64,000 bases of DNA from Mytilus edulis (Eukaryota): NCBI RefSeq assembly GCF_963676685.1, contig NC_092353.1, positions 20,307,307 to 20,371,306 of the forward strand, written 5' to 3'. The translations under genes were made by a program, and so were the position numbers. This document shows, in pieces, positions 7,105-56,896 of this stretch. Every line of letters starts with the position of its first letter. Position 1 is the first letter of the stretch. The notes below the pieces were generated by a model that saw only the letters and a list, made by a program, of their open reading frames with translations, had not been told where the DNA came from and searched no databases.

Positions 7105-8070
7105 TCATCTCTTTTGTCGTAAAGTTTTTGTTTTCAACCGACCCTCATTGTCAATTTCTAGATGTAAGTCAAGATATGAAGCCGACTTAACTGTATCTGT
7201 AGTATCCTTTATCTCCAATTCGATGGAATAGATGCGTTCCACATAGTCACCAAATTTTGAATTGTTTAGTGAAAGAACGTCATCTATATAGCGGAAAGTA
7301 GAGTTAAAGGATTTTGCTAACTTCTTATCTTTCTTCCTAAGAAGTTTCTGCATGAAGTCAGCCTCATAATAATAAAGAAACAAGTCGGCAAGTAGAGGAG
7401 CACAGTTTGTTCCCATTGGGATGCCGACAGTTTGTTGAAAAACACGTCCTCCGAACGTTACAAATATGTTGTCAATCAAGAAATCAAGCATCTTGATAAT
7501 ATCGGTTTCAGAGAATTTTTTGTTTGAATCAGAGTGATTCTTTACAAAGTATGATTTATCCCTCCCTAAGACAAGATACTTGTATCTACGTTGGCCATTC
7601 TTTTTTATGAAGCAAAATAATACCAACTCTTTCCATTTGTCTTTTAGTTTGGAATGTGGAATACTTGTGTAAAGAGTAGAAAAGTCAAATGTTTTAATAC
7701 TGTTACAAGATGAAAGAGAGTTAGATTGTATGTACTCTAAAAGATCTTTGGAATTTTTAAGTATCCACATCTGATTCACGCCACCTCTAGAATAGGCAGT
7801 TTCACAATAACTTTGAAGCCCGTCTTTTATTGCTGATAAAAGAGATGTTAATAATTTAGAAAGAGGTTTCGTGGAGCACTTGGAAGATCCAGCAATATAC
7901 CGTTGTTTGTAAGGACACTTATGTAGTTTAGGTATCCAATACAGTGATGGAAGATCCAGTTCTTCATCTTTGGTTGAAATACCAAAGGAACAAAGAACAG
8001 ACCTATGATTATCAAGGATTTCCTCTTTGGTAAGTGTCGTGAGGGTATATGTTGAGTTAATATATGACAC
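7105..8070 (-). CDS. Reverse transcriptase domain (retroelement pol fragment)
   Basis: Motifs read from the translation: 'YWIPKLHK...QRYIAGSSKCSTKPLSKLL' (K-x-H-K plus R-x-I-x-x-S, resembling the Penelope-like RT N-terminal signature, from memory); 'FDFSTLYTSIP' (motif A-like); 'GIPMGTNCAPLLADLFL' (motif B'); 'FRYIDDVLSL' (YxDD catalytic motif C). Confidence 0.65.
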   Translation of the reverse strand: MSYINSTYTLTTLTKEEILDNHRSVLCSFGISTKDEELDLPSLYWIPKLHKCPYKQRYIAGSSKCSTKPLSKLLTSLLSAIKDGLQSYCETAYSRGGVNQMWILKNSKDLLEYIQSNSLSSCNSIKTFDFSTLYTSIPHSKLKDKWKELVLFCFIKKNGQRRYKYLVLGRDKSYFVKNHSDSNKKFSETDIIKMLDFLIDNIFVTFGGRVFQQTVGIPMGTNCAPLLADLFLYYYEADFMQKLLRKKDKKLAKSFNSTFRYIDDVLSLNNSKFGDYVERIYSIELEIKDTTDTVKSASYLDLHLEIDNEGRLKTKTLRQKR

Positions 8071-9239: not shown

Positions 9240-9960
9240 CTAACTAGAGTATAATGGATACAGCTAAGTCTGCCTCAAATCTTGACTTACATCTAGAAAT
9301 TGACAATGAGGGTCTGTTGAAAACAAAACTTTTCGACATAAGAGATGATTTCAGCTTCCCAATTGAAAACTTGCCATTTCTATGTAGCACTATTCCAGCA
9401 GCGCCTGCATACAGAGTATATACCTCCCAATTGATACAATATGCTCGTGCTTGTATTTCCTATCATGATTTTCTTGATAGAGGGTTGCTGTTCACAAGGA
9501 AGCTTTTAAACAAAGAGTTCCAAATGGTGAAGTTGAAATCATTCCTTCATAAATTTTACGGATGCCATCGCAAGTTAGTTGACAGTTATGGAATAACCGT
9601 TTTTTCCATAACCGTTTCACAGATGACATCTTATAATATGCTCCTTATGTCATAACTGCAATCCCCTTCCCTATTCAGGAATGTGACCTACAGAATTAGA
9701 CTATTTACCAGGTTTGTAATAACATGAGCTGGTGCCACATGTGGAGCAGTATCTGCTTATCCTTCCAGAGCACCTGAGATCATCCCCAGTTTTTGGTGGG
9801 GTTCGTGTTGCTTAGTCTTTAGTTTTCTATGTTGGATCTTGTGTACTATTATTTGTCTGTTTGTCTTTTTTGTTTTTAGCCATTGCGTTTTCAGTTTATT
9901 TTGGATCTATGAGTTTGACTGTTCCTCTGGTATCTTTAGCCCCTCTTTTATAGTGTTTCT
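9240..9960 (+). mobile_element. Second copy of the same retroelement family: 3' portion only (C-terminal domain plus tail), head-to-head with the copy at 6500-8090
   Basis: ORF 9254-9655 'SASNLDLHLEIDNEGLLKTKLFDIRDDFSFPIENLPFLCSTIPAAPAYRVYTSQLIQYARACISYHDFLDRGLLFTRKLLNKEFQMVKLKSFLHKFYGCHRKLVDSYGITV' matches the end of the 7105-8070 ORF ('SASYLDLHLEIDNEGRLKTK') and the 6812-7088 frames. Tail 9655-9960 is the reverse complement of 6500-6810. Confidence 0.55.
9254..9655 (+). CDS. Retroelement ORF C-terminal domain fragment (intact frame, 133 aa)
   Basis: See above; the domain is not identifiable by me as GIY-YIG or another named nuclease. Confidence 0.5.
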   Translation: MDTAKSASNLDLHLEIDNEGLLKTKLFDIRDDFSFPIENLPFLCSTIPAAPAYRVYTSQLIQYARACISYHDFLDRGLLFTRKLLNKEFQMVKLKSFLHKFYGCHRKLVDSYGITVFSITVSQMTSYNMLLMS

Positions 9961-11304
9961 GTGTTTTCTTTGACTAAACCTTAATACCTAATGAAACATT
10001 GAACCAGGTATGTAGATCTGGTAAATGATCCAAATCCAATAAACACATTTATTTACTTGATGGTAAAAACTACAACAAAAACTATTCATGATTCTGACTG
10101 GGCTGACCCTGTGCTTTATACATTCACAAGTCTTTAAAGTGCTATTTTCATTTTCAAGTTAATTGCAGAATAAGAATAACAAATTTAATCCTATCCTTTT
10201 TTTTATTAAATATATTAAACCATAATACAAATCATTATCACAAAACCAAAACCTTTTTTTTTTATCACAAAGTATAAAGCAATTAGTTAAATGCTAACCA
10301 GGTGCTCCGCAGGGCGCAGCTTTATACGACCGCAGAGGTCGAACCCTGAACAGTTGGGGCAAGTATGGACAAAACATTCAAGCGTGATACAGCTCTGAAT
10401 TTGGATTGTGATCAAATTTTTGACATTACATGGTTTTTTTTTACACAAAACAAATGTCAAGATTTTACAAATCAATTAAAAATTTCTTCTTCAAACTTTT
10501 TAAATCTAAAATTAAATAGTTGACACAGCATAGGTTTCTGACACAGAATGAATGTGGTTTAATGAACTTAAAAGTTTTTTTTGCCTTTGAGCAATTCACT
10601 ATGCTGTTGAATATTAATCCTCTCAAAAAAATGTTTGAAGAAATTTTCTTTTTATTTATGAAATCTGAAATGACAAAAATTAAACCCCCCCCTCCTTTTT
10701 TTCACATCCCCGTTTCCCTTTTTCCAAAACTGATATCAATTCAAATTTCTAATGGAGTTTGCAACAATAACTACTCTTTTAAATACATCATAAAATATTA
10801 AAATGTAAAATAAAGTGCTTGTTATCACTGAATGGTAAAGATTGGTTGGTAGTAAAAGTGAATATACATTGTTTATTGTTTAAAACAATAAAAAAAACTT
10901 CATCAGCAACATTTTATATTGGCAAATTTCCAATGAAGTTATTTACATAAAGTTATTGGCAAATAAAAATAGAAAATGACATCATAGTCATGTCTGGCAA
11001 ATGTCCAACATACATTATCTAAAAACATTTTAGATAAGATAAGGAAAAAAAGCTTCATCAGCAACATTTTATATTGGCAAATTTCCAATGAAGTTATTTA
11101 CATAAAGTTATTGGCAAATGAAAATATAAAATGACATCATAGTCATGTCTGGCAAATTTCCAACATATATTATCAACTACTATTCTATACAAAGAAAGAT
11201 AACTCCAATTGAAAATTAATTGCTATTGCACAATATTGTGCAATTAGATATTTCTTGCTATTGTGCAATACTGTGCAATTGAAAATTTCTTGCTATTGCA
11301 CAAT

Positions 11305-11865
11305 ACTTGATATGGAATCCTGATTTGGACCAACTTGAAAACTGGGCCCATAATCAAAAATCAAAGTACATATTTAGATAAAGCATATCAAATAAGCCCA
11401 AGAATTTAATTTTTGTTAAAATCAAACTTAGTTTAATTTTGGACCCTTTGGACCTTAATGTAGACCAATTTGAAAACTGGACCAAAAATTAAGAATCTAC
11501 ATACACAGTTAGATTTGGCATATCAAAGAACCCATTTATTCAATTTTTGATGAAATCAAACAAAGTTTAATTTTGGACCCCCATTTGGACCAACTTGAAA
11601 ACTAGGCCAATAATTAAAAATCTAAATACATTTTTAAATTCAGCATATCAAAGAACCCCAAGGATTCAATTTTTGTTAAAATCAAACTAAGTTTAATTTT
11701 GGACCCTTTGGACCTTAATGTAGACCAATTTGAAAACGGGACCAAAAATCAAGAATCTACATACATAGTTAGATTCGGCATATCAAAGAACCCCAATTAT
11801 TCAATTTTTGATGAAATCACACAAAGTTCAATTTTGGACCCTTTGGGCCCCTTATTCCTAAACTG
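11305..11865. repeat. ~122 bp tandem repeat, ~4.6 units (internal array of the family A element)
   Basis: Unit 'ttggaccaacttgaaaactgggcccataat...aatcaaac(a/t)(a/t)agtttaattttggaccc'. Confidence 0.7.
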
Positions 11866-12460
11866 TTAGGACCAAAACTCCCAAAATCAAACCCAACCTT
11901 CCTTTTATGGTCATAAACCTTGTGTTTAAATTTCATAGATTTCTATTTACTTATACTAACGTTATGGTGGGAAAACCAAGAAAAATGCTTATTTGGGTCC
12001 CTTTTTGGCCCCTAATTCCTAAACTGTTGGGACCTAAACTCCCAAAATCAATACCAACCTTCCTTTTGTAGTCATTAACATTGTGTTTAAATTTCATTGA
12101 TTTCTATTTACTTAAACTAAAGTTATTGTGCGAAAACCAAGAATAATGCTAATTTGGGCCCTTTTTTGGTCCCTAATTCCTAAACTGTTGAAACCAAAAC
12201 TCCCAAAATCAATCCCAACCGTTCTTTTGTGGTCATAAACCTTGTGTCAAAATTTCATAGATTTCTATTAACTTAAACTAAAGTTATAGTGCGAAAACCA
12301 AGAAAATGCTTATTTGGGCCCTTTTTGGCCCCTAATTCCTAAAATGTTGGGACCAAAACTCCCAAAATCAATACCAATCTTCCTTTTGTGGTCATAAACC
12401 TTGTGTTAAAATTTCATAGATTTCCATTCACTTTTACTAAAGTTAGAGTGCGAAAACTAA
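11865..12460. repeat. ~150-160 bp tandem repeat, ~4 units (second internal array)
   Basis: Unit 'ccctaattcctaaactgttgggaccaaaactcccaaaatcaataccaaccttccttttgtggtcataaaccttgtgtt(a)aaatttcatagatttctat...gcgaaaaccaagaaaaatgcttatttggg'. Confidence 0.7.
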
Positions 12461-12465
12461 AAGTA

Positions 12466-12530
12466 TTCGGACGCAGGACGACGACGACGACGACGACGCC
12501 GACGACGACGCCGACGCAGACGTGATAGCA
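12466..12530. repeat. (ACG)n / (GAC)n microsatellite preceding the element's 3' hairpin
   Basis: 'gacgcaggacgacgacgacgacgacgccgacgacgacgccgacgcagacg'. Confidence 0.8.
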
Positions 12531-13080
12531 ATATACGACGAAAAATTTTTCAAATTTTGCGGTCGTATAAAAATAGATATAACAAAAACATTTTCATCAC
12601 AGGAAAAAAACTTAATAAACTTACTGCTAAAAATATGACTATAAAAACATATGATATTAAGTGAATTTAATATCATCTTTAGTCCTTCAAATACCTATTT
12701 GGTAGTGAAATCTTTATGTATTAGGTGAAATTGTTTGTTTCAAGTGACTTTAGATTAGATTAAACAGAGATCCATGATAGTAGGGGAATTTTGTAACTGA
12801 AACTGATTAACAAACATTTAATATAATTGCATCATTATCATCAATTAATAATTACATTAAATGTATGTTTCACTATAATACGTTATTCTGATTGGCTAAC
12901 TGTACGTCACATGTTATTCCTTAAGCAGTTGTATCACACAATAAAACTTTTCATTCATGATGACACGAGGTCCCACAATAAAGTGCACAGGTAAATGAAA
13001 TAAATACTTGATAAAAGGCGTGTTTTCATGATCCTATAGGTAAAAATGTAATTATAAGTATTGAATGCTTTTTTTTGTAA

Positions 13081-13190: not shown

Positions 13191-14347
13191 CAAAAAAGAG
13201 CATTTAATTCTTGAATAATAGATACATGGTTATAATAGGTTCAATACCAAAACCAATTTAGATATATTAAAACATAACAATTATAATTATATCACAATTT
13301 AGCAGATAATTAGCAATAAAAAACATAGTTAAAAGTGAATATGTTTGTAATATCTAGCTGCAGTATTGTGTTTTATGAACAAAAATATAAAATAACATTA
13401 TACATTGGCAATCTGTATAAAGACAAATGAAGTTCTGAAGATGTCCAAAATATGACCACTTAAATATGTTACAGACTTGATAGCAAAATGTAAACATCAT
13501 TAGACAATAAAATTATGAATTAAAAAAAACATAAAACAACAATTAAATCATTAATCAAATAACATACATACATAGAAATAAAAATAAAACAATATGCTTT
13601 TAAAAATGTTATAACAAAAATTTACAAAAAACTAATTTTTATTTTACAATTTGTGTTAATAAATTAAATAAAAGTTATAATATCCATGATATCATAGCCT
13701 TTGTAAAAATGTATAATAATGGCATTTTGAAATTTGTATAACATAAAACTTATTTGTGCAGAGCACTTGCAGTAACTCAATTTTTCTCTTGCAGTTTAAT
13801 TGAGATTTCATGAAAATTTGTCTTTTTGTTCAACAATTTGTACATATCATGAAAGGTAAACTTTTATTTGACTTTCAAACATTAATTCAATATATTCAAC
13901 AGAAATTTGCAGGACGCCATCATCTATGTATTATTATATCATTATTACCAATAAAATATTTTTTCTTTATTTAGATATTTTGAGATGGACAGTGTTAATT
14001 AAAATTCTTTTTTCAAATTTTGTTAACTTTTGTTTGAAAAAAATAAATACATAAATAAAATAAATAAATGAATATTTTGTAAACAACATTATAAGGAACA
14101 AAGTTTTCTATCTCCGTGGTAACCAATACATTTGCACTGAATAACTAATATCATAAATATTGTAAAATGCTACATTTTGAATGGCTAGTCATATAGATTA
14201 TTCAAATCTCTTAGAATCAAAGAAAAAAACCAAAACCATGTCATATTTATTAGCATAAATACTGAAGAGCTACCTTGGTATATAGGGAAAAGAAGTTTTT
14301 TCAATCATTAATTACATTTGGTTTTTCTTTATAAAAAACATAATAAA

Positions 14348-14653
14348 AAATGAGAAAACAAGAATGTGTCCTCAGTACACGAATGCCCCACTCGCACTAT
14401 CATTTTCCATGTTCAGTGGACCGTGAAATTGGGGTAAAAACTCTAATTTGGCACTAAAATTAGAAAGATCATATCATAGGGGACATGTGTACTAAGTTTG
14501 AAGTCGATTGGACTTAAACTTCATCAAAAACTACCTTGACCAAAAACTTTAACCTGAAGCGGGACAGATGGACGGACGAACGAACGGACGGACGGACGGA
14601 CGCACAGACCAGAAAACATAATGCCCCTCTACTATCGTAGGTGGGGCATAAAA
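14348..14653 (+). mobile_element. ~300 bp MITE/SINE-like element with terminal inverted motif (atgccccac / gtggggcat) and internal (GGAC)n-like microsatellite
   Basis: Starts 'caagaatgtgtcctcagtacacgaatgccccactcgcactatcattttccatgttcagtggaccgtgaaattggggtaaaa', ends '...cagaccagaaaacataatgcccctctactatcgtaggtggggcataaaaaa'. Near-identical copy at 56035-56313; partial diverged copy at 19255-19470. Confidence 0.5.
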
Positions 14654-17600: not shown

Positions 17601-19254
17601 TCCCCTATCTGATCTGGACTAATTATTAACATTGGTGTCTGTAAAATGAGACCTACCTCTTCTTGAATAGCAAATATTTTATTCATACTATATTTATCTA
17701 CTGTTCCTCCTGTCTTCACTGGTTTTATAGTTGAACCGATTCCATAATCGGCCAAATCTGTTGAAGGACCTATAATTATAATTAACAAATATGGAACAAT
17801 GTTCAACAAGGAGATTTATTTTTTCTTTCATTACTCGGTTATTAATCTCATCGGCTGTAGTATCAAGTTTGTTGAGGGTAACAATACTGATTTGTTTATT
17901 TTCTTTTCTGTAAAAGTTTTGTATAAATGAATTTTAATGTGATTTGGTCTCTAGTGGACAGAGTTGCCACATCATTCTTATTCATAAATGTCTTAAACAG
18001 GTTTAAATCCGAAAGGACCAAATTTTATCTAGCCTAATTGAATTTCAATTCTATCAAAAATTTTTACTTTCCTCAGCTTAAAGAAATTGTTGGCTTTGAA
18101 TTATTTCTGATATTTCAGGACATAAATAAATGGCACCCCTCCCAAGATTAGCATGTTCTATATGGGATGCAAATTGTGCCCTAACAGGAGGTGTAAATAC
18201 AGAAGTAATAATAATCATGCCACCATATCTAAATAAGATACAGCCGTATAAGGACAAAAATATGGTCTCCAATAAAACACTTAAGACATCATCACCAAAT
18301 TCATAACCCCTTAGATCATGTGAGTATCTAACCCTCAATCTTGTCATGGCCAAATGTGAAAGTGAAATGAAAACCTTGTAAACAATGACCGAGGATAGAC
18401 AAGACAAAAGATGAAATTTTATACCAGTAGAAACAACTCAGGGGTGTTGAAAATAAAATGCTAGTTCGGTTATCATAACATATAGCTCTAACCCTCTTTG
18501 AATCAAAACTACGTATTAATTCAGGTACTTTCAAAGGGTCATGACAGCACCAATAATAATCAATCTACAGTATTTGACATAAAAGTATGAAATGTAGTTA
18601 CTATATAATATAACTATATTATAAACATTGTAAACATATAAGATATATGTAAATTGTACACAAATCTTGAACATATTATCTATACCTTGTTGCCTAACTG
18701 TTTCTGATCTTGATGACACCTACATTAAAATAAATAAAGATTAAGTCAAAATAGTGCAATGCTTTTGGGTGTTCAATAAATCATTCTATGAGTAACTACA
18801 ATTTATAGCACCATGCAGGGTAAAAAATAACCATAGTGAGTAGAACTCAATTTGTAGAATTTAACTTTTTCAATTTAAAATGTATAATAAAGGGTTCATC
18901 TGAGAAATAGAATTAAAGCAATATTATCTCCACATCTTAAATTTCATGAACCATGAGAACCATAATGCCATAATTCATGATATTTTGAAAATTATAGAAC
19001 ACAAGCAAGTGCTTTTTCCTAGAAAAATATCAAATTGTGTGCCTTTACCGTTTAAGTTCAAGGTCAAATTATATTTGGACCATTTTATGCAAAAAATGAT
19101 ATCTTTCTGAACATTTTCCCTGTCTGCATGTGAACTTGCCCAGATTCTGACACTGATTAGATTTTTGTTTCATGCATTTCAATATATAAGTGCCTGGAAA
19201 ATATTGAATAGTGTTCAAATGATATTTATGATCTATTTACACACAAGATTTTTC

Positions 19255-19470
19255 AAATTCAGTGGACCATGAAATTTGGGTAAAAATCTAATATGGCATT
19301 GAAAATAAAAAGATCATAGCATAAGGAACATGTGTAATAAGTTTAAAGTTGATTGATCTTCAACTTCATCAAAATCTACCTTGAACCAAAATTTTAACCG
19401 AATGAGGGGCAGACGGACGAACAAAAGTATGTAAATACCAGATAACATAATGCCCATAAATGGGGCATAA
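19255..19470 (+). mobile_element. Partial, diverged copy of the 14348-14653 element
   Basis: 'cagtggaccatgaaatttgggtaaaaatctaatatggcattgaaaataaaaagatcata...ggcagacggacgaac...ataatgcccataaatggggcataaaaa'. Confidence 0.35.
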
Positions 19471-20139
19471 AAATTACATGTTTACAACAAAAATTTCAGT
19501 GTTCTTCCCTTAAAAGATGCAAATTTTGATTGCCATGTTTCTATGTGTAGCATATCAAGCGCAGAAAGATAGTTTGTTCCTATTAAGGGACGACATCAAA
19601 AGTTCAATGAAGGATAAAAAACTTAATTCATATAGTTTTTTCACTGACCCCCACACCCCCCCTCTTAACTTAATTTGGGAAAAATTGATTTACCAATAGG
19701 GATATATGTAAAAATCGATTTTAGATATACAAAACTTGCAGAATTTTAACCCCCCCACCCCCAAACTATTTGATTTAAGTTTTCTATCCTACATCGATCT
19801 TTTGATGTCGTCCCTAAGTTAGAGGGTTTTAAAATACCCATCAATTCATATATTTCTCAAAATTACCATTGTTCAAGGCATAAATATTTAATGTAAAAGT
19901 TTCCAACCCAATCTTATATTTGACAGCAGTATCGTGGTTGGAAGGACAGTAAGAAAAGTTTCTAACCTCAAATAATCTGCATGGTTACAGTGCCTTTATG
20001 TTTTATCCTGTTTGCAATGTTCATATGGGCTTAGTTCAGTTTTCCTTGCTGCATCTAAGCAAGATGGAGATGCAACATTTTTTACCTGATTTAAGTGTGC
20101 GTATGGATAACTAGCGGATTTAGGGGGTTTTGGGGGGTT

Positions 20140-20724: not shown

Positions 20725-22357
20725 CAGACATGGGGTCAATTACATTTGAAAGTAATTAATTACATTCAATTACAATTACAAAATCTTCAATTAAATTACA
20801 CATTACATTTGACTTTTTTTACCAATGTAATTAATTACATTCCAATTACTTGGCAAATGTAATTAATTACTTCAATTACATTTGAAAGGAAATTTAAGAT
20901 AAAACATTGAAAACATGCATTTATTCTATGATATGTACATAAGTATTATACATTGCTCTATAGTTATAACAATTAGACAGTGTTCAACTAGTATATACAT
21001 TTTTGTATTGTGTCATATAACTTATTTAAGCATTTTCCCATTACATTTGACCATCATCAGCTTTTCAAATGTTCCATCAGCCAGTCTGCACCTTTCCGGC
21101 CTAAATGTTTTTCCAGCAGTGCTAAATAAGCGTTCAACTGGTGCAGATGTGGCTGGAATAGCTAAATATTGCACTGCTAACTTAGCTAGACGTGGTAAAC
21201 GTTGACAGTTACTATGCCAATACAAAAGAGGGTCTTTTGACATATCAATACAATTATCTGACAAGTAATCATCCATTTCTGAACTTACAGAAATCCCTGA
21301 AGGGTTTCTTTTTCTTTCCACTGATGGGGCTGGCATGAAACTGAAAAGATCATCATTTTTTGCTCGCTTACATGGGGGAGAATTTTGATCACAAGGGGGC
21401 TCAGATGATGTAGGGACTTGACTAAGTTTGTCCTTAACAACAGCTAAACACTGATCAATCTGTTCAGTTTCACACCATCTGGTCTTAAATCTTGGGTCTA
21501 AAAAGCTAGCAAGAATATATGCTTCATCCTCTACAAACTGAAACAATCTTTCTTCAACAGAAGATTTCAATGATTTTATCATTTTACAATTATAGTCAAC
21601 TGATATAAGTTTTAACTGGTGTTTTAATCCAAGTGTTACAGGAATTGGCAAGCTAGCATAAAATGTTTTCTTTCAACATTCATATATATAGTGAACAAAT
21701 TTTGCAAGTGAGATTTTGTCATATGCATTATCCCTTCAAGAATTTAAACATGTACCTATAGGCCCTAGGGGTATATTTATCTCTCTCTAATTAGCCTTAT
21801 ATCTGTTTAACATAACTGTTATAAAAACAGTCATTATATAGTTTGTAATAAAACAAATAGCCAGAGGTTATATTTATTGGTTATTTAAGTCCTTGAATAA
21901 AGTTAATTATGTTAAATCAATGTCTTAAAATATCTATCTAAATCTACTAATTAAGGTCAAGACAGTGACTTCCTAGTGGTTTCTTTTAAAATTATGGCAT
22001 GTGTCTACATTTTTTTTATCATTCAATACAAAATGAAGAATCTACCATGGTTGTGTTAATACAGAAAGTATACTGTGAAGGCTTTTCTTTGTCAGCTTAC
22101 AACATTTGTTAAGATTATTGCTTTTAATAATTTTTTGAGAAAACACAAGATTTAATCTTTTGATCCAAAATTTCAAATGTAATTGACTTGTAATTGAAAA
22201 GTAATTGTCAATTACAGGCAATTTTGGCTATGTAATTAATTACATTCAATTACATGTAATTGAAAAAATGCTCAATTACACATTACATTCAATTACATGA
22301 TAAATTGTAATTAATTACAGTCAATTACAATTACATATTTCAATTACCCCATGTCTG
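20725..22357 (-). mobile_element. hAT-superfamily DNA transposon, internally deleted (non-autonomous)
   Basis: Perfect 12 bp TIRs: CAGACATGGGGT at 20725-20736, and its reverse complement ACCCCATGTCTG ending at 22357. Perfect 8 bp TSD GTTTTGTT at 20717-20724 and 22358-22365. Sub-terminal arrays of 'aattacatt' repeats on both arms. Internal ORF encodes the hAT C-terminal dimerisation domain. Confidence 0.85.
21022..21651 (-). CDS. hAT transposase C-terminal fragment (hATC dimerisation domain); N-terminal and catalytic part missing
   Basis: 'FLDPRFK' motif and 'LAKLAVQYLAIPATSAPVERLFSTAGKTFRPERCRLADGTFEKLMMVKCN' (classic hAT dimerisation signature). No upstream ORF inside the element, so the transposase is truncated. 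Confidence 0.7.
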   Translation of the reverse strand: MPIPVTLGLKHQLKLISVDYNCKMIKSLKSSVEERLFQFVEDEAYILASFLDPRFKTRWCETEQIDQCLAVVKDKLSQVPTSSEPPCDQNSPPCKRAKNDDLFSFMPAPSVERKRNPSGISVSSEMDDYLSDNCIDMSKDPLLYWHSNCQRLPRLAKLAVQYLAIPATSAPVERLFSTAGKTFRPERCRLADGTFEKLMMVKCNGKMLK

Positions 22358-29450: not shown

Positions 29451-29809
29451 TTTGTTAACATACAAATTACTAAAAATGGGTAAAGGGGGGATACATGCAT
29501 TTCAACTGTTTCATTGTAAATGATTATTTCACGATAAACGAAAGAGAAAAGGGCAATTCCTTGCTTCCTATCAAAATGAATGAAATTTGTTTAATGTGCT
29601 TCAAGCAGGAAAAATTGCAAAGATATGAAAATAACAGTTTACTACCAGAACGAAAATCCCAATAAAAACAAGGATATTTCTTTTGTCCTTTTTTCTAGGT
29701 AATTCTGCTTTAAAAAAAATAAAATCAAATAAACATAAAAACTTATCACATTTAGTTTGTTAGAATTCTTACTTGTAATTGTTTATTGTTTGATAGATTC
29801 TTATTTATT

Positions 29810-30440
29810 ATATCAAATATATATAAGATATCTTATTTAATAATTGAGATATCTTATTTTATAATTGAGATATCTTATTTATCTTATTTAATAATTGAGA
29901 TATCTTATTTAATAATAGAGATATCTTATTTAATAATTGAGATATCTTATTTAATAATTGAGATATCTTATTTATCTTATTTAATAATTGAGATATCTTA
30001 TTTAATAATTGAGATATCTTATTTAATAATTGAGATATCTTATTTAATAATTGAGATATCTTATTTAATAATTGAGATATCTTATTTATCTTATTTAATA
30101 ATTGAGATATCTTATTTAATAATAGAGATATCTTATTTAATAATTGAGATATCTTATTTATCTTATTTAATAATTGAGATATCTTATTTAATAATTGAGA
30201 TATCTTATTTAATAATTGAGATATCTTATTTAATAATTGAGATATCTTATTTATCTTATTTAATAATTGAGATATCTTATTTAATAATTGAGATATCTTA
30301 TTTTATAATTGAGATATCTTATTAAATAATAGAGATATGTTATATATAAGATATCTTATTTAATAATTGAGATATCTTATTTAATAATAGAGATATGTTA
30401 TATATAGAGATATCTTATTTAATAATAGAGATATCTTATT
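29810..30440. repeat. 21 bp minisatellite (unit gagatatcttatttaataatt, with 30 bp variants), ~28 units
   Basis: Direct reading. The listed 179-aa ORF 29786-30325 'ISYLIIE...' is a repeat-frame artefact (21 is a multiple of 3). Confidence 0.9.
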
Positions 30441-30974
30441 TAATATATAAGATTTCTTAATTACTATTAAAGATATTCTATTTAAAATAAAATAAGTCTC
30501 ACTCAAAATATGTATAACCAATCTCATTTCAATTTGTTTTCTGTTTATCTAGAAATAAGAATTTACGAAACTATTATAAAGAATTGAAATATTTTATTAA
30601 GTTCCATTTTTTTTTTGGGGGGGGGGGGGTGATTAACTCAAAATGCTCTCCCTTTCATAATTCGTCAGTCAGAAATAATGACAAGAATGAGACTTAGTCC
30701 ACAAATAGATATGATACAAAAATTACAGGAATTTTCACATTCGTTGAACCATTCACTTGTGCTGGCATGGTCATCTACATTCTTTATAACCATGGTTAAC
30801 ATACCTCTCTTTTATTCTATCCGAATGTGACAAAAACTATTTTGTTAGCTTACTTCTATTATATTTCGATGGTTTTTTTTTCCATCACAATCTCTCCTTG
30901 ATTATTACTTGCATCAAAGTCAACAGATTTTATATAAGGTAACTGTTTTAAAATAAAATTAATAATATGTCATA

Positions 30975-31305
30975 TTTCAAATAGTTTGAAAAAATAAGAT
31001 ATCTTATAAAGTAAATAAGATATCTTATTTACTTTTAAAGATATCTCATAAACTATACAAGATATCTTATAAAGTATTTGTTTAAAAGATATCTTTGAAA
31101 AGATATAAGATATCTTATAGAATAAATAAGATATCTTATAGAATAAATAAGATATCTTATAAATTAAATAAGATATCTTATAAATTAAATAAGATATCTT
31201 ATAAATTAAATAAGATATCTTATAAATATTATAAGATATCTTGTATACTTTATAAGATATCTTATTAACTTTACAAGATATCTTGAAATTGATTAAATAT
31301 AAAAA
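30975..31305. repeat. 21 bp minisatellite (unit aagatatcttataaattaaat) sharing the AAGATATCTT core
   Basis: Direct reading. Listed ORF 30970-31320 (-) is an artefact. Confidence 0.85.
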
Positions 31306-31789: not shown

Positions 31790-32205
31790 AAGATTTAAAG
31801 CCTTTGCAAACAGATGGGATCAAATGCTTTACCGAGCTCAGCCTGATACGACAGCAGAAATTGAACCCTGAACAGTTGGTGCAAGTTTGGACACAATACT
31901 CAAGCTTGATACTGAGACACAAACTAAATGTGGGGAAAGATCTTGAAATATTTTTATTAACTTTCAATTGAATATTTCTTGCTATTACACAATACCATAT
32001 GCAATTGAAGATTTCTGGCTATTGCACACTATTGGGCTATTGTGCAATACTATGCAATTGGATATTTCTTGCTTTTGTCCCATACTGTGCAATTGAAGAT
32101 TTCTTGCTATTGTGCAATACTGTGCAATTGAAGATTTCTTGCTATTGTGCAATACTGTGCAATTGAAGATTTCTTGCTATTGCGCAACACTTCATATATA
32201 GTTTA
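31790..32205. mobile_element. Partial third copy of the family A element: left arm plus 40 bp sub-repeats
   Basis: 'gaaattgaaccctgaacagttggtgcaagtttggacacaatactcaagcttgat' matches 10335-10385 and 55165-55205. It is followed by 5-6 units of 'ttgcacaatactgtgcaattgaagatttcttgctat', each unit carrying the inverted repeat attgcaca/tgtgcaat. Confidence 0.4.
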
Positions 32206-33523
32206 CAAATCATGTTTGGTGTATCTCCTGCCATATCAGTATTATTTTGCTTTTATCTATAAATTGCAAAATGGAAAATTTTGAAGAGAAAAAAAAAAAT
32301 ATGAAAAAAAATTCCTACCCAAATTTTATTCAATTCCCTTTGAGTAATTATCAAACTCTATCCCAGCTTTCCCTTTAAGGTATGGTACATTGCAGTACAA
32401 TTTCAGAGAAATCCATACACTTGAACACAAGTTAATGTCTAGAAACTAGAAAAATGCTTGTTAACCAAAATAAAATGACATTAATTTTTTGTGGGTACTA
32501 ATTTTCGTGGATTGAGAAAACTTGCATTTCAGTGGATATTTGGTTTCATGGTTTTGTCAATGTCTGTATACAATCCTATACATATAAACTTTCTCATTGG
32601 TTGAATATTTAAATTTGTCAGTTTCACCTTTACCCACAAAACCCATGAAAAGTGGTATCCAACACATAACACAAATGTAATAATGAATACACAGTATTTC
32701 CCTATACTTACATCCTCTTTTTAAACTTTCTAGACCTTAGATTATCAAATAATGAAGCATGGGAATCAACCTAGAAAATTAAGAAATCATTTTTAAAATT
32801 CTCACAAGGTCTGAGGTTTTTCATCTAACAAAGTGTATCTAAATTTTTGCCCTATACATATAGCATTGCCTGCCAAGTTATATAACATATACATCTCGAT
32901 CTATGTGCCTGTCATTTATTCTGTTGATATTACTGAATAGCTTTGTTCTTTTACAGTTGTGGCATAATCATTAATTTGCACAGAATTTCCAATAAACCAG
33001 TGCTATTAAGGTCTTAAACTTGCAGTGAGGTGAGAGCTTTTGCTCCATGTTAAACAATGTGACTGAAATAAGTTTTAACAAGAGTTTTTATTGTTCACTG
33101 ACTTCTTCGCATCTACCAGTTCAAATCTATTCAGCATATCACCACAATGGCAGGGATTCAAAGTTTACTGAACAGTCGTTTGCCAAAGTATATAAATGCT
33201 GACATATATAGCATAGTAGTTGTTCGACTTTGCTATTACATAAATCGATGTGAAAAAGAACAAGAAGTTTAGATTTCCTTTTAAAATAGAATGCACTAAC
33301 AACCCAAGGAATCATAATATCATATATATATATATATATCTGATGGTGGAAATGAGATTTTGCAAATCGTAAAAACAACACTTTTAAACTAAGTTTTCAA
33401 AATCGGAACTATTTGTTTGATATTATCTAAAATTAACTTTTTCATTTGTCATTATCTATAATTGGTTCAAATTAATCATTCATTTGACATTCATATTATA
33501 AGTACAGGTATCTTTTTACTTAC

Positions 33524-34875
33524 CATTAATTCTTCAGTATTACTTTGTTTTTGAACGCTATCAGCAGAATCTAATTGGCTAGGTATATCCTTCTCAATTA
33601 TTGATAGTGATTTTGTTATACTCCCAAAAACACGAGCAGATCCTCCACGAGCAGTTAAACCACTCATTTTTTTAGCTGAAGATCCATCTGAAATGTCTGA
33701 AAGTAATTGTGCTCTTGGTGATGTTGATGAAAATACTTGATTTTGTTTTAGATGAGAAGAACTACTCTTTGCCATTTCCCTAGGACCAAATGGCGGTGGT
33801 TGTATTCCTCTTGGAGGACCATACCTTGGTTCCGGTAGCATACGATTCAATTCTTTTAGTAGTGAAGGTGGTGGTGCACCAGACACTAAAGAGTCCATTT
33901 GTTTTGATGACTGCAAAGGTGGTTGTGGTTTTCCCTGTTGATGCAGTGGTGGCATTCCTGATGCTGAGCATTTAATTTTAACTGGCATTCCTCTTGATTG
34001 TAGGGATGTTGGAGGTGGCATTCCGCTTGATGGAAGAGGCGGTGGGGGTGGTGGTATCCCTCTTGATGATGCTAGAGGGGGTGGAGGAGGGGGTATTCCA
34101 AACTGTGGACCAACCTGTTGTGGCAACAGTTCATCACATATTTCTTCTGGAAATGCTAATGCAGCAGACATTGGAGAGTACATTTGTATTGATGGAGGAT
34201 CTGACTTTACTGATGAAGAGCCAACAACATGCATTCCTCCTGGTGGTTGTGGAGGTGGCATTCCTCTCGATGGATCATCAAATAACCTTTTTGAACGAAA
34301 TGTTGATGGTTTAATTTGCCATTTGTCTGACATTGCTCTTGTTGATTGTAGGGGTGCTGGAGGTGGCATTCCTCTTGTTGATGGTAGAGGGGGTGGAGGA
34401 GGTGGCAAAGCGTCATAAACTATTTCTTCAGGAAATGCTTGTGCAGGAGACATTGGAAAGTACAATTGTGTCGATGGATCAGGTGGTATTACTGATGAAG
34501 ACCCATCAACATGTTTTCCTCTTAGTGGTTGTGACGGTGGCATTCCTCTGGGTGGTTGGGGAGGACGCATTTCTCCTGGTGGCTCATAAGATAACCTTTT
34601 TGAATGAAATGGTGATGCTTTAATTTCCAATTTATCTGACAGAAGTTGCGATGTACTTTGTTGTGTTCCTTTTGATTGAGCATCAGAAATCATTTGGGAT
34701 TGGAATGGTGGTGATGCATCTTGTTGGGTTGGTTGTATTTTTCTTAGTGAACCAGATTTAAGAGAAAGCATGTCTGATAGTGTTTTTAATGCTTGATGTT
34801 TGTCAGGTACACTAGATTCTATTGTATCTTCATCTGAAGATAAGGTTAAAGACCTGCTATATTTCATCAAAGTAT
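33524..34875 (-). CDS. Large exon encoding a proline-rich, FH1-like low-complexity repeat domain (two ~100-aa internal repeats)
   Basis: 465-codon open frame. Acceptor 'ttttgtag|ATACTTTGATG' (exon high end 34875, needs 1 nt from the previous exon). Donor 'GAAGAATTAATG|gtaagt' (exon low end 33524). Motifs 'GIPPPPPPLPSSGMPPP', 'RGMPPPQPP', 'ALPPPPPPLPSTRGMPPPAP'. The plus-strand ORFs 33790-34623 are antisense artefacts of CCN codons. Confidence 0.55.
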
Positions 34876-35689
34876 CTACAAAATGCAAAAATTATTAATC
34901 AACTATTTTTTTCATCCAATATTGTATCTTAATATTTCTAAAAAAAAAATATTATCTTCAACCTTTTCTAGTGTATTCAATAAATATGAGTATATGAATA
35001 AATATTATATGTAGGTTACACCTTTGCATGAATATATAATTCTGACCTCACTTGCAAACACAGGAATAGCAGATGGCTTAACTATAATTTATCAGCCATG
35101 GACTCGGGGATTTTCTTGTACTAGTAATGTTTATCTGTTTTCATAATGCATTTGCATGAAATATTTGCCACTGGATGCTAATCCTTAGTTCATTTAACAA
35201 AGTCAAACATAAATCTGTTGTAGTACATGAGTTTATAATTAGTGTCTTCTTAATATGAGAGTTTTATGGGTTTTTTTCTTATAAAATTGTTCTTGTAGAA
35301 AGTTTCATATCAAAGTGTGTGTTTTTTTTTATCAGATAACTTTTGTCCACCAATGACTTATTTGTCACTCAGATTGAGGTTCTTTTCAAATTAAACATAC
35401 ATTTTTTTCCCTTCCTCATTCTAAATTTTTTTATTGTGATAGTATAGAGATCCCATTTGTTTTGTCAAGTCTAATAGTGAACTACTGTTCATCATTTATG
35501 CCAAAATTTATGACTTGCCAGGCAAATATGAAAATGTTCAACAAAATGATGACAACAGCACAAAATATATTAACTGCAAATTCTCTTATCTCTGTTTTTT
35601 TTGCCTGTTTTTTTAGCACTTTAGTTGTTTTCATGACTATTACTGATCTTTTGACTTAAACCAATTGCAACTAATTTTAACGGTTTAGT

Positions 35690-36335
35690 CCACTGTGTAA
35701 GACTAGTGTGAGAGTTAAACACCACCGTCTAAGACTAGTGTGAGAGTTAAACACCACCGTCTAAGACTAGTGTGAGAGTTAAAACACCACCGTCTAAGAC
35801 TAGTGTGAGAGTTAAACACCACCGTCTAAGACTAGTGTGAGAGTTAAAACACCACCGTCTAAGACTTGTGTGAGAGTTAAACACCACCGTCTAAGACTAG
35901 TGTGAGAGTTAAACACCACCGTCTAAGACTAGTGTGAGAGTTAAACACCACCGTCTAAGACTAGTGTGAGAGTTAAAACACCACCGTCTAAGACTAGTGT
36001 GAGAGTTAAACACCACCGTCTAAGACTAGTGTGAGAGTTAAACACCACCGTCTAAGACTAGTGTGAGAGTTTATCACCACCGTCTAAGACTAGTGTGAGA
36101 GTTAAACACCACCGTCTAAGACTAGTGTGAGAGTTAAACACCACCGTCAAAGACTAGTGTGAGAGTTAAACACCACTGTCTAAGACTAGTGTGAGAGTTA
36201 AACACCACTGTCTAAGACTAGTGTGAGAGTTAAACACCACTGTCTAAGACTAGTGTGAGAGTTAAACACCACTGTCTAAGACTAGAGTGAGAGTTAAACA
36301 CCACTGTCCAAGACTAGTGTGAAAGTTAAGCACTA
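35690..36335. repeat. 32 bp minisatellite, ~20 units, with a variant gradient
   Basis: Unit 'taagactagtgtgagagttaaacaccaccgtc'. The last ~6 units carry accaccgtc -> accactgtc, with occasional 33 bp variants. Confidence 0.9.
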
Positions 36336-38920: not shown

Positions 38921-39515
38921 CAGTTAACAGTAAACAGTTAATTTATAAATATGAAAAAAAGTTAAAAAGGCCAAATAAAGTAAGAAGTTGAAGAGCATTG
39001 AGGACCAAAGTTCCTAAAAGTTGTGCCAAATACGGCTAAAATAATCTATTCCTGAAGTAAAAAAACCTTAGTATTTCAAAAATTCTAAATTTATTTTGTA
39101 AACAGTTAATTTATAAATATGACCATATCAATGATAATTCATGTCAACACAGAACTGACTACTGGGCTTATGAAACCCTCGGGGTATTAAAACTCCACCA
39201 GCAGTGGTATTGACCCAGTGGTTGTAAATAAACTCATCAGAGATACCAGATACCAGATAGACTGCTTTATGGAACAGATTTTACTCATCGCCAAAGATTG
39301 CTTTCATCTTTACATTTGGTTTATATGGTTAGATGTCTCATTGGTAATCATAACACATCTGATTCCTTTATACTCTATAAACAATTGTTGGTGCTATCAA
39401 TGTCCAAAGCATGCTTAAGTTTTGATTTTGGTACTTTCTTGCACTTCTGCAACTCTGATGCAGTCAAGACAGTAATTATGGTAACTTTACCGAATTCAAT
39501 AAACTCTAAACTTAC

Positions 39516-39871
39516 CTTCACCTTCAGCAGACCACAGTGTTAAATTATCTCTTAACAACTGCATTTTTACAGTTGAATCTTTATAGCTCTCTTCACTTAA
39601 ACAATCTAGCTCTGATATTGCCTGATCAAATGCTGATTTTGCTATACTACATGTTTTATCTGGGGAGTTGAGAACATCGTGATATAATGCAGACAAACTA
39701 AGTGCTAAATCTAGACATACAGGATGAGTAGGTGGTAAACCTGCAGATGCTGTATCACTTGCAATGTTATATGCAGCTAATTTTTTTTCTGTGGCTTCAT
39801 TTTTATCATTTCCTGTGACAGTTTCATTTAAGAATTGGTAATAGTCTGCTAAGTATTGGTAATAATTTCTC
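39516..39871 (-). CDS. 14-3-3-like protein, C-terminal-half exon
   Basis: 'RNYYQYLADYYQF...[74 protein letters not shown]' versus canonical 14-3-3 'GDYYRYLAEVA...[69 protein letters not shown]'. Acceptor 'cctggaaag|GAGAAATTAT'. A possible donor 'GAAGGTGAAG|gtaagt' (phase 1) sits at 39516; alternatively the frame reads through to a stop at 39496 ('...GKFRVY*'). Confidence 0.7.
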
Positions 39872-51453: not shown

Positions 51454-51534
51454 CTGAAACAAAAAAAAAACAAACTTTACTTCATTTCTATATTTTATAT
51501 ATATATATATGCTTACAGAAAATTAATGGGCCCT

Positions 51535-53855: not shown

Positions 53856-53864
53856 AATTGTTAA

Positions 53865-55113: not shown

Positions 55114-56772
55114 CTAACCAGATGCTCTGCAGGGTGCAGCTTTATATGACCGCAGAGGTCGAACCCTGAACAGTTGGGGCAAGTATGGACACAACATTTA
55201 AGCTTGATCAAATAATTAACACAATATAGGTTTCTGACACAGAATGAATGTGGTCTAAGAACTTAAACTTAAAAACTTAAAAATTTTAAATTGGACATTT
55301 ACCTATTATGGTCCAATATCCAAAATCTAAATACATGGTTAGATTCAGCATATCATAGAACCCCAAGAATTCAATTTTTGATGAAATCAAATAATGTTCA
55401 ATTTTAGACCCTTTAGACCTCAATGTGGACCAATTTGATAACCGGGTCTAAATATTAAAAATCTAAATACATGGTAAGATTCAGCATATTGAAGAACCCC
55501 ATATATTCAATTTTTGTTGAAATCAAACAAAGTTTAATTTTTGACCCTTTGGACCTTAATGTAGACCAATTTGAAAACGGGACAATACTGTGCAATTGAA
55601 TATTTCTTGCTATTGCGCAAAACTATGAAATTGAAAATATCTTGCTATTGCGCAATATTGTGCAATTAGATATTTCTTGCTATTGCACAATACTGTGCAA
55701 TTGAAGATTTCTTGCTATTGCGCAATACTGTGCAATTGAAAATTTCTTGCTATTGCACAATACTGTGCAATTGAAGATTTTTTGCTATTGCGGAATACTG
55801 TGCAATTAAAAATTTCTTGCTATTGCACGATACTAAATATAATAATTTTGGACCTCGATTTGGACCAACTTGAAAACTGGGCCCATAATTTAAAATTTAA
55901 GTACATGTTCAGATTCAGCATATATCAAAGAACCTCAATTTTTGTTCAAATCAAGCTAAGTTTAATTTTGGACCCTTTGGGCCTTAATGCAGACCAATTT
56001 GAAAACAGGACCAACAAGAATGTGTCCCCAGTACACGAATGCCCCACTCGCACTATCATTTTCTATGTTCAGTGGACCGTGAAATTGGGGTAAAACCCTC
56101 TAATTTGGCATTAAAATTAAAAAGATCATATCATAGGAAACATGTATACTAAGTTTGAAGTCGATTGGACTTCAACTTCGTCATAAACTACCTTGACCAA
56201 AAACTTTAACCTGAAGAGGGACAGACGGACGAAGGAACAGATGGACGGACGAACGAACGGGCGCACAGACCAGAAAACATAATGCCCCTCTACTATCGTA
56301 GGTGGGGCATAAAAATTAAGAATCTGAATACACGGTTAGATTTGGCATATCAAAGAACCCCAATAATTCATTTTTGATGAAATCAAACAAGTTACTTTTG
56401 GACCCTTTTGGCCCCTAATTCATTGTCACCAAAACTCCCAAAATCAATCCAAACCTTCCTTTAGTGGTCATAAACCTTGTGTTAAAATTTCATAGATTTC
56501 TATTAACTTATACTAAAGTTATTGTGCAAAAACCAAGAAAAATGCTTATTTGGGATCTGTTTTTGGTCCCTAATTCCTAAACTGTTGGGACCAAAACACC
56601 CAAAATCAATCCCAACCTTCCTTTTATGGTCAGGTTTATATTTCATAGATTTCTGTTTACTTTTACTAAAGTTAGAGTGCGAAAACCAAATATCTTTGAT
56701 GACGCTGACGCTGATGCCAACGTGATACCAATATACGACCAAAAAATTTTCAATTTTTGCGGTCGTATAAAA
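55114..56772. mobile_element. Family A tandem-repeat-carrying element, copy 2, with a nested MITE insertion
   Basis: Left arm 'gctaaccagatgctctgcagggtgcagctttatatgaccgcagaggtcgaaccctgaacagttggggcaagtatggaca' matches 10287-10365. ~122 bp units at 55270-55590 and 55850-56030; 40 bp units at 55590-55840; ~155 bp units at 56340-56690; (GAC/GCT)n at 56695-56725; hairpin 'caatatacgacc...gcggtcgtataaaa' at 56735-56772. Lies within the 51453-56897 intron of the VWA5A-like gene. Confidence 0.5.
56035..56313 (+). mobile_element. Nested copy of the ~300 bp MITE/SINE-like element (same family as 14348-14653) inserted into a 122 bp unit of the family A array
   Basis: The host unit 'ggaccaaaaattaag' becomes 'ggaccaa[caagaatgtgtcc...gtaggtggggcat]aaaaattaag'; the insertion is absent from copy 1 (10287-12575). 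An A-run expansion by 2 is consistent with a 2 bp (AA) TSD. Confidence 0.5.
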
Positions 56773-56896
56773 AGGAGCTTGAACATATCAGACATTTCAA
56801 AAAACTCAATTTGTCAAAATTTGAAAGCTTTTCATAGCTGAAAAATAAAACCATGCACAGAAAAATTCTTGAAGCAACATAAAGAGAGTTACTTAC

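Follow-up and report, generated by a model that had tools for sequence, protein, structure and literature searches.

Family A of Mytilus edulis, a probable Helentron-associated interspersed element carrying up to four unrelated tandem arrays

Introduction

The closest described counterparts of the elements reported here are pearl, DTC84 and MgE, which share a modular plan: core repeats and a microsatellite lie between a left flank (L), whose inverted motif is subterminal, and a right flank (R), whose inverted motif is terminal, and the ends are AA (PMC3879986). Pearl and DTC84 were first interpreted as MITEs (PMC3879986), and all three have been reclassified as non-autonomous Helentrons, or Helentron-associated interspersed elements (HINEs; PMC4067079, PMC7492417). 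HINEs, including Cg_HINE, are defined by the order of their parts: the tandem repeats are preceded by a 5' subTIR, an inverted repeat (IR) and a microsatellite, and followed by a 3' subTIR and a palindrome (PMC7492417, PMC4067079). They are characterized by subTIRs of 11-15 nt and by integration between T and T with no target-site duplication. The microsatellite is typically (GTCY)n, and published distances to the element ends are 2-4 nt for the 5' subTIR, 8-35 nt for the palindrome and about 38-60 nt for the 3' subTIR (PMC7492417, PMC4067079). Canonical Helitrons have 5' TC and 3' CTRR ends and insert between A and T (PMC4067079).

We analysed a stretch of 64,000 nucleotides from M. edulis (contig NC_092353.1, positions 20,307,307 to 20,371,306; hereafter the window), in which an earlier note had recognized a repeat family with a layout like that of pearl, MgE and DTC84. 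This family, family A, is very probably a non-autonomous Helentron-associated interspersed element (HINE or pearl-type) of the Mytilus genome, lying on the minus strand of the window. Its copies, of which there are several, end at shared, sharply defined positions within unrelated flanks, and they differ in their arrays. The class of element is already known; family A is unusual in the number of arrays it carries.

Anatomy of family A

Read on the minus strand, family A consists of TTTT, a 12-nt 5' subTIR, a complementary IR, (GTC)n, tandem arrays, a 3' subTIR and a GC-rich palindrome, and ends in ...GGTT. Its body holds up to four mutually unrelated tandem arrays (161, about 133, 35 and 155 bp) plus a spacer. 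Copy 1 is laid out as follows in window coordinates (L001-L004 are marine-metagenome contigs with further copies):

10296..12573, minus strand: family A copy 1, complete, 2278 bp (homology limits against copy 2 and L002-L004)
12570..12573, minus strand: 5' terminal T-run TTTT, five Ts counting the first base of the subTIR (sequence)
12558..12569, minus strand: 5' subTIR TATACGACCGCA (exact match; reverse complement of 10323-10334)
12532..12549, minus strand: IR complementary to the 5' subTIR, the other hairpin arm (inverted-repeat search; fold z = -3.85)
12461..12522, minus strand: microsatellite, (GTC)n on the element strand, (GAC/ACG)n on the plus strand (TRF and sequence)
11833..12460, minus strand: tandem array, 161-bp unit x 3.9 (TRF, module map)
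11323..11846, minus strand: tandem array, about 133-bp unit x 3.9 (TRF)
11206..11307, minus strand: tandem array, 35-bp unit x 2.9, with an internal inverted repeat (TRF, inverted-repeat search)
10890..11174, minus strand: tandem array, 155-bp unit x 1.8, 96% matches (TRF)
10396..10889, minus strand: internal spacer, non-repeated (module map)
10323..10334, minus strand: 3' subTIR, TGCGGTCGTATA on the element strand (inverted-repeat and motif search)
10304..10320, minus strand: 3' palindrome, GCTGCGCCCTGCGGAGC on the element strand (stem-loop in the fold)
10296..10303, minus strand: 3' terminus ...ACCTGGTT (six copies lose homology exactly here)

The claim that two full copies share both arms was borne out. 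The left arm on the plus strand, which is the right flank of the element, was 92.7% identical between copies 1 and 2 over 96 bp (E=1e-36) and 83% identical between copies 1 and 3 over 77 bp. The right ends of copies 1 and 2 were 86% identical over 73 bp (E=2e-20), and the 5' ends of both copies begin TTTTT.

The 5' hairpin comprises perfect stems of 8-9 bp inside an 18-bp imperfect palindrome. In DNA folding it reached -9.2 and -10.9 kcal/mol in copies 1 and 2, respectively (z = -3.9 and -4.3), and none of 200 shuffles folded as well. These results agree with the (ACG)n microsatellite and terminal hairpin described before; the microsatellite, at 12461-12522 in copy 1 (12477-12522, period 3, 13 copies according to TRF), is decayed in copy 2. 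On the element strand it is (GTC)n, a trinucleotide form of (GTCY)n, and directly adjoins the first 161-bp unit. The hairpin had been labelled as 3'. Because the element lies on the minus strand in the Helentron frame, it is in fact the 5' subTIR/IR hairpin, and the true 3' palindrome (10304-10320) had been overlooked inside the supposed left arm. The pearl-, MgE- and DTC84-like Helentron layout proposed from these parts was as published, with its orientation reversed and with an identity to MgE that is not obvious.

When reverse-complemented, the 14-nt motif tttatacgaccgca (10321-10334) matches 12558-12571 exactly, as the earlier note had observed. Searching for the subTIR 12-mer with at most two mismatches gave seven matches in the window, where 1.3 were expected, and six of the seven lie inside the three family A copies. 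When inverted, the 3' subTIR matches the 5' subTIR at 12/12 positions in copy 1 and 11/12 in copy 2. The right-flank segment with the 3' palindrome folded with z = -2.4 in copy 1, and the palindrome is retained with substitutions in copy 2, L002, L003 and L004, with its 5-bp stem preserved. Two features speak against a HINE: the 3' palindrome is short, its copy 2 version being no better folded than shuffled sequence (z = -0.9), and the long spacer adjoins the right flank, whereas the variable segment of Cg_HINE comes after the microsatellite.

The 5' subTIR lies 4 nt from its end, and 8 nt separate the palindrome from the 3' terminus. The 3' subTIR stops 26 nt (10297-10322) short of that terminus, and its far edge is 38 nt away. 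These distances fit the published HINE values, with the 3' subTIR at the low side of 38-60. The ends, TTTTTATACG... and ...CCTGGTT as read on the element strand, are not those of a canonical Helitron, and this assignment was rejected. Of the window ORFs of at least 130 aa that were scanned against Pfam, none matched a Rep or helicase domain, in keeping with a non-autonomous element.

Further copies and boundaries

A DNA pattern scan for the right-flank end gave seven copies, three in the window and four in marine-metagenome contigs (L001-L004). All four metagenome copies begin at the nucleotide corresponding to window position 10296 in copy 1 and have unrelated flanks, so that the end search proposed in the earlier note yielded a left boundary on which they agree. 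In six of the seven right-flank copies the flanks are unrelated and homology is lost at one common base; six 3' ends close with TT, and L001 is truncated before the subTIR. The 3' boundary of family A is defined from six independent ends, and the 5' end from two copies, no additional copy of the plus-strand right end having turned up. The sharp common ends claimed earlier were upheld, and the six independent left ends shifted their placement by 1-9 bp. No flanking direct repeat longer than the terminal Ts was visible at the family A copies. The three window copies have 3-7 nt in common outside the boundary set by the metagenome copies, a point against the reading as a HINE; these nucleotides might have been left by read-through at the 3' end, which is seen in rolling-circle elements.

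Identity between L004 and copy 1 is 98.4% over 835 bp and reaches 100% in the terminal 100 bp. Its flank is nevertheless different, the pattern expected of recent transposition. DNA pattern scans with the right- and left-flank patterns found none in viral contigs or in bacterial and archaeal genomes. A protein-level search with an ORF reading through the left flank gave 2270 candidates, none of them significant, and an exact-ORF look-up of two family A ORFs gave no record. The subTIR strings returned only unrelated primer and miRNA matches from the literature.

Tandem arrays across copies

Copies 1 and 2 have three classes of tandem repeats in common, in differing numbers and order, as had been noted. 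The periods given for them, 40, 122 and 155 bp, were incorrect; TRF and the module map put them at 35, about 133 and about 161 bp, and copy 1 has a fourth class. The arrays follow the order 155-35-133-161 in copy 1 and 133-35-133-161 in copy 2. Relative to the flanks, every unit keeps a single orientation throughout the copies (module map). The four classes are mutually unrelated, except for two 133-bp subtypes, a and b, which are 79% identical to each other and alternate in copy 1 to form a 260-bp higher-order unit. The 155-bp class occurs in copy 1 and L004 only and is missing from copy 2 and L003; positions 1462-1701 of L004 are 99-100% identical to the array in copy 1. The spacer of copy 1 is common to L003 and L004, and copy 2 has only 10520-10584 of it in common (module map). 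The 161-bp unit contains GGGCCC, on account of which we considered, and then dropped, the idea that it might be a known ApaI satellite of Mytilus.

Copy 2 and a nested element

Copy 2 sits in an intron of a PARP4-like gene, with a VIT exon on one side and a VWA exon on the other, confirming that one copy is intronic. It also holds a different HINE-like element, family C:

55116..56773, minus strand: family A copy 2, complete, 1658 bp including the nested element (homology, module map)
55116-55208, minus strand: right flank (module map)
55143-55154 (1 mismatch) and 56758-56769, minus strand: subTIRs (motif search)
55324-55583, minus strand: 133-bp units, first block (module map)
55583-55834, minus strand: 35-bp unit x 7 (module map)
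55858-56405, minus strand: 133-bp units, second block, interrupted (module map)
56015..56310, minus strand: family C, nested in a 133-bp unit of copy 2 (split unit)
56397-56689, minus strand: 161-bp unit x 1.8 (module map)
56690-56722, minus strand: microsatellite, decayed (module map)
56723-56773, minus strand: left flank (module map)

The T-run is as in copy 1 (56770-56773). The family C insert splits its host unit so that unit positions 1-36 lie before it and 32-128 after it, and is 88% identical to 14344-14557. Family C is one of two other families in the window with the architecture of family A.

We found no empty site for family A, and the filled and empty sites compared here come from its sister family C. 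In one pair the nested copy was set against uninterrupted 133-bp units, and in the other M. trossulus was set against the window. In both comparisons the element had entered a T-run and the site had gained two Ts net, with no other change, which is equally compatible with a TT target-site duplication made by a cut-and-paste enzyme.

Copy 3 and M. trossulus

The third, partial copy reported earlier was recovered, with the left arm, six 35-bp units and no right end:

31830..32190 (approximate), minus strand: family A copy 3, old, truncated (homology, module map)

Its right flank is diverged and has lost part of the palindrome by deletion; the six 35-bp units follow, and there is neither microsatellite nor 5' end. 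Its 3' terminus is mutated to GGTA, and a possible 161-like relic lies nearby at 32399-32459. Copy 3 is also present in M. trossulus at the orthologous position, with a 35-bp array that is one to two units different in number from that in the window; the insertion predates the split from M. trossulus. The M. trossulus segment compared (CM071711.1, 50,201,049-50,223,426) matches window positions from about 49,000 down to 27,800. A search with a proline-rich 465-aa ORF (33491-34888) gave no hits.

Comparison with described elements

Family A was likened to Cg_HINE of Crassostrea gigas (Repbase Helitron-N*_CGi; Vojvoda Zeljko et al. 2020, PMC7492417) by layout. In both, the left flank contains a 5' subTIR of 11-12 nt together with its complementary IR and a microsatellite of GTC type, and the right flank a 3' subTIR and a palindrome. 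The central repeats of both are satellite-like, measure about 160 bp and keep a fixed orientation; both have T-rich ends and intronic copies. Cg_HINE carries one array, exceptionally two, whereas family A carries three to four unrelated arrays whose order varies between copies. The microsatellite unit of family A is 3 nt rather than the usual 4 nt, and its long spacer is beside the right flank rather than behind the microsatellite.

Compared by layout, pearl (C. virginica CvA/CvE/CvG; Gaffney 2003) and DTC84 (Donax trunculus; Satovic & Plohl 2013, PMC3879986) have the same modular plan of L, core repeats, microsatellite and R as family A, with an inverted motif of about 11 nt that is subterminal in L and terminal in R, and AA ends; the earlier note had followed this orientation. 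They differ in having a single core-repeat type of up to 5-6 units and an ACGG-type microsatellite. MgE (Mytilus galloprovincialis; Kourtidis et al. 2006), as described in later papers, is from the same genus and is intronic, pearl-like and satellite-associated (PMC3879986, PMC7492417). As summarized in one of these it has no microsatellite (PMC3879986), whereas family A has one, and going by that description family A is therefore not obviously MgE. DINE-1, HINE-Mo and autonomous Helentrons (Thomas et al. 2014, PMC4067079) share with family A the subTIRs, a 5' IR nested against the subTIR, the microsatellite, central repeats, 3' stem-loop and T-run boundaries; insertion at TT, as described for them, may also be common to both (PMC4067079). 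Unlike DINE-1, family A has no conserved DINE-1 core, and its arrays are multiple and much larger.

Alternative interpretations

We consider it unlikely that family A is a classical MITE, moved by a DDE cut-and-paste transposase with a 2-bp TT/AA target-site duplication. Inverted repeats are indeed present, the plus-strand ends read AA...AA as in pearl and DTC84 (PMC3879986), and filled and empty sites of family C differ by exactly two A/T. However, the inverted repeats are asymmetric, one being terminal and the other 26 nt from its end, and there are an additional 3' palindrome and a 5' IR. The same architecture has been linked to autonomous Helentrons sharing termini (PMC4067079), and the C. 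gigas counterparts have no target-site duplication at empty sites (PMC7492417).

Family A might instead be immobile, its copies being local segmental duplications of a satellite-rich block that included the arms. The three copies do lie within 46 kb in identical orientation, with the 3-7 nt in common outside the metagenome-defined boundary. Beyond those nucleotides, however, the flanks are unrelated, and four more copies on unrelated contigs end at one nucleotide; copy 3 predates the M. trossulus split, and copy 1 has a 98.4% identical twin elsewhere. These observations have already largely refuted such a duplication, which we regard as highly improbable. We give almost no credence to a SINE-like retroposon. 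On that reading the A5 of the plus strand would represent a short poly(A) tail, and GGTCGAACCC, within the left arm, would be a degenerate B box for pol III. The plus strand does close with AAAAA, and GGTCGAACCC is one base short of the tRNA B-box consensus. However, the A-run is fixed at five bases, there are no variable-length target duplications, and the architecture of subTIRs and hairpin is not of SINE type. The authors describing pearl and DTC84 likewise reported no complete A and B boxes (PMC3879986). A tRNA- or SINE-derived left arm was dropped as a candidate after ARAGORN found no tRNA-like match, and Rfam no match, in the window.

Discussion

For family A as a HINE, we infer both the enzyme and a rolling-circle mechanism by analogy with described Helentrons. 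The enzyme would be a Helentron Rep/helicase(-endonuclease) whose gene lies elsewhere in the genome; it would recognise both subTIR-bearing ends and move the element by a rolling-circle type of transposition. The element would enter T-rich DNA between two Ts, and no target-site duplication would arise. Afterwards, slippage, unequal exchange or inter-element recombination would make copies differ in the number of units and the order of arrays. The outcome would be that short satellite-like arrays are carried into euchromatin, including introns.

Elements of this kind are the leading proposal for how short satellite-like arrays become dispersed in the euchromatin of bivalves and for how classical satellites are seeded from them. 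Family A leaves knowledge of the element class unchanged. It places four array types under one pair of ends and has near-identical copies at different loci. Together with an old copy shared with M. trossulus and a nested element, these near-identical copies make it a convenient, datable case for the rate of array change and for exchange between elements. Tentatively, and with more doubt than confidence, we also put forward that family A is a recently active composite HINE that has gathered four unrelated satellite-like arrays between one pair of Helentron ends, that its copies reshuffle these arrays, and that recombination between HINE families builds and spreads a 'satellite library'. If this is true, recombination between families, beyond the expansion of single arrays, would make the Mytilus 'satellite library'.

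Family A copies and their ends

Family A, most likely a Helentron-associated (HINE-type) element on the minus strand, is represented in the window by two full copies, c1 (10296–12573) and c2 (55116–56773), and by a truncated copy, c3 (about 31830–32190). In BLAST searches of the window, the left arm (the low-coordinate end) of c1 matched that of c2 at 92.7% identity over 96 bp (E=1e-36) and that of c3 at 83% identity over 77 bp. The right ends of c1 and c2 matched at 86% identity over 73 bp (E=2e-20), which bears out the arms that the earlier note had claimed for these two copies. Its third, partial copy, described as a left arm with 40-bp units, also held: c3 consists of the left arm and six units with a true period of 35 bp, and no trace of the right end was found downstream of it.

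A 22-base left-arm core was used to scan public metagenome contigs; it hit four (L001–L004), each containing a further family A copy. L004 was 98.4% identical to c1 over 835 bp, with 100% identity in the terminal 100 bp. L003 matched c1 at 94% and then 89% identity across the spacer and arrays and lacked the 155-bp array class. L002 carried the arm and 1.3 kb of new flank, and L001, a truncated copy, ended before reaching the subterminal inverted repeat (subTIR). At the left, homology ended at the same position, window 10296 (AACCAGG...), in all five of c1, c2, L002, L003 and L004, and the outer flanks were unrelated. For this end, the result answers the refuting outcome named in the earlier note, namely conserved ends that fail to coincide with its arms. 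The right end was placed at ...GGTCGTATAAAAA (12573 in c1 and 56773 in c2) from c1 and c2 only; DNA pattern scans of viral contigs and of bacterial and archaeal genomes gave no match to further right ends. Directly outside the 3′ boundary, 3–7 nt (AGCATTT or AGCTT) are common to the three window copies and absent from the metagenome copies, although L004 equals c1 right up to the boundary. These bases could be a chance match, a target motif or 3′ read-through bases of one sub-lineage.

The sharp common boundaries with unrelated flanks, together with the 98–100% identity of L004 on another flank, argue for transposition of family A, some of it recent. The retention of c3 at the orthologous M. 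trossulus site (L005, a segment of CM071711.1) also argues for transposition; column identity in the L005 alignment is about 89% overall and rises to >93% in the flanks and arm around c3. For family A itself, no empty site came to light. Simple local duplication was rejected.

Anatomy, orientation and relatives

In published HINEs, the left flank carries a 5′ subTIR 2–4 nt from the end, a complementary inverted repeat (IR) and a microsatellite; central tandem repeats come next, and the right flank has a 3′ subTIR followed by a short palindrome 8–35 nt from the end. T runs form the boundaries, and insertion is at TT (PMC4067079; PMC7492417). Family A matches this layout in its minus-strand reading only.

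Family A anatomy in c1, in element order
12569–12558, −, 5′ subTIR, TATACGACCGCA, preceded by the terminal TTTT
12549–12532, −, IR
12522–12461, −, (GTC)n microsatellite
between (GTC)n and the 3′ subTIR, −, arrays and spacer
10334–10323, −, 3′ subTIR, TGCGGTCGTATA
10320–10304, −, 3′ palindrome, GCTGCGCCCTGCGGAGC
10303–10296, −, 3′ terminus, ACCTGGTT

The microsatellite, hairpin and 14-nt inverted motif are all present as the earlier note stated. What it called a 3′ hairpin is, in the Helentron frame, the 5′ subTIR/IR hairpin, and the arm that it took as left contains the genuine 3′ palindrome. This reversal arose because older pearl and DTC84 papers use that orientation (from flank L through the core repeats and the microsatellite to flank R, the ends being AA; PMC3879986).

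A canonical Helitron was rejected, as TC...CTRR ends are absent from family A, and so was a tRNA- or SINE-derived origin, for which ARAGORN and Rfam gave no match. Among the scanned window ORFs of at least 130 aa, no Pfam match to a Rep/helicase domain was found, and an autonomous element was rejected on this basis.

Elements of this kind are well described in bivalves, including Mytilus (pearl, MgE, DTC84 and Cg_HINE; PMC3879986; PMC7492417), and by comparison of descriptions we rate family A as a further member. Cg_HINE has one array, exceptionally two, whereas family A has three to four unrelated arrays (PMC7492417). As MgE reportedly has no microsatellite (PMC3879986) and family A has one, family A is probably not MgE, a distinction drawn from MgE's published description only. 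Family A is modestly distinctive in its unrelated arrays, copy-variable array order, trinucleotide microsatellite unit and nested HINE.

Sister families and the insertion site

Two HINE-like families, B and C, have the same architecture.

Families B and C
51589–53943, −, family B; CTAG...CTAG ends, 166-bp × 12.8 array (93% identity)
53864–53897, family B (ACG)n microsatellite
51614–51622, family B 3′ subTIR
51593–51608, family B palindrome
14359–14649, family C
56015–56310, family C, nested in c2
about 19250–19475, family C
L005 8916–9541, family C

Family B has a strong 5′ hairpin (CTCACCTGGCCC/GGGCCAAGTGAG, z = −4.3) and is bordered by host T-runs (element strand). Arrays of an about 20-bp unit, GCGCCCGGGGAAAAGAAAA, directly border it (51530–51588 and 53944–54040), and the unit reappears inverted at 54713–54811, about 700 bp beyond the bordering array; these arrays look like a foldback-type repeat that received the family B insertion. 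Family C has the subTIR ATGCCCCAC and a (GTCC)n microsatellite. Its window copies have one internal unit of about 165 bp; the M. trossulus copy has three in tandem, and the corresponding window site (44400–44470) is empty, which indicates both a presence/absence difference between the species and internal-unit amplification.

The family C copy nested in c2 splits a 133-bp unit, which reads ggaccaa[element]aaaaattaag; its intact neighbours read ggaccaaaaattaag. In M. trossulus the filled sequence is ataaaa[element]aataataaaag; its empty counterpart in the window is ataaagtaataaaag. In both pairs the element went into an A/T run, where the filled site exceeds the empty one by a net two A/T; nothing else was duplicated. 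One reading is insertion between T and T, in which case the terminal Ts are the element's own; the two-T gain is equally compatible with a TT target-site duplication. The same ambiguity is acknowledged in the literature, where it was settled by autonomous Helentrons sharing the same ends.

Host locus

Window positions from about 49,000 down to 27,800 are collinear with the M. trossulus locus (76–95% identity), and a PARP4-like gene (2387 aa; BRCT, PARP, VIT and VWA domains) covers that locus entirely.

PARP4-like exons (Pfam, weak scores from fragment queries)
57279–57518, −, VIT exon
50767–50982, −, VWA exon
49510–49785, −, VWA exon

Because the VIT and VWA exons bracket c2, this copy is intronic, as the earlier note had proposed for one copy; family B lies in the same intron, and c3 lies within the span of the gene. 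A divergent 14-3-3 epsilon-like gene (exon 39496–39957, −) is nested inside the PARP4-like gene. Its exon is 89% identical to an M. trossulus protein and ≤62% identical to every other match, which marks it as a fast-evolving paralogue. Together, this exon match and the collinear locus place the window in a Mytilus species distinct from M. trossulus, or in a strongly diverged haplotype. A proline-rich 465-aa ORF (33491–34888, −) had no homologue among 5.8 billion proteins searched; in the alignment to M. trossulus, its region is 71–81% identical at the DNA level.

Other tandem arrays in the window, none of them assigned to an element, are a 32 bp × 20 array (35690–36333, 96% identity), AGATATCTTAT-type 21-bp units (29795–30485 and 30992–31284) with opposite orientations across about 30.5–31.0 kb, a 112–120 bp × about 8 array (40975–41869) and 34/55-bp units (63483–63790). 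Transposon remnants at 7105–8070 (−), 9254–9655 (+) and 21022–21651 (−) include a reverse-transcriptase fragment (RVT_1, E=1.6e-6), with a related ORF 1.2 kb away in opposite orientation, and a hAT C-terminal dimerisation domain (E=6e-19).

Turnover of the tandem arrays

Array composition was determined with TRF and a module map built with c1 units.

Family A arrays in window order
c1: 155 bp × 1.8; 35 bp × 2.9; about 133 bp × 3.9; 161 bp × 3.9
c2: 133 bp × 2; 35 bp × 7; 133 bp × 2 (interrupted); 161 bp × 1.8

Both full copies thus share three repeat classes in differing numbers and order, as had been noted from the sequence; the unit sizes then given (40, 122 and 155 bp) were off, the TRF periods of the common classes being 35, about 133 and 161 bp. 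The 155-bp class occurs in c1 and L004 only. Unit comparison revealed no similarity between classes, except between two 133-bp subtypes. The orthologous 35-bp array of c3 counts about six units in the window (31965–32176) and about 4.5 in M. trossulus (L005 20695–20879). The difference, made up of a 24-bp and a 17-bp indel, shows array turnover directly, though on a small scale, at a single locus.
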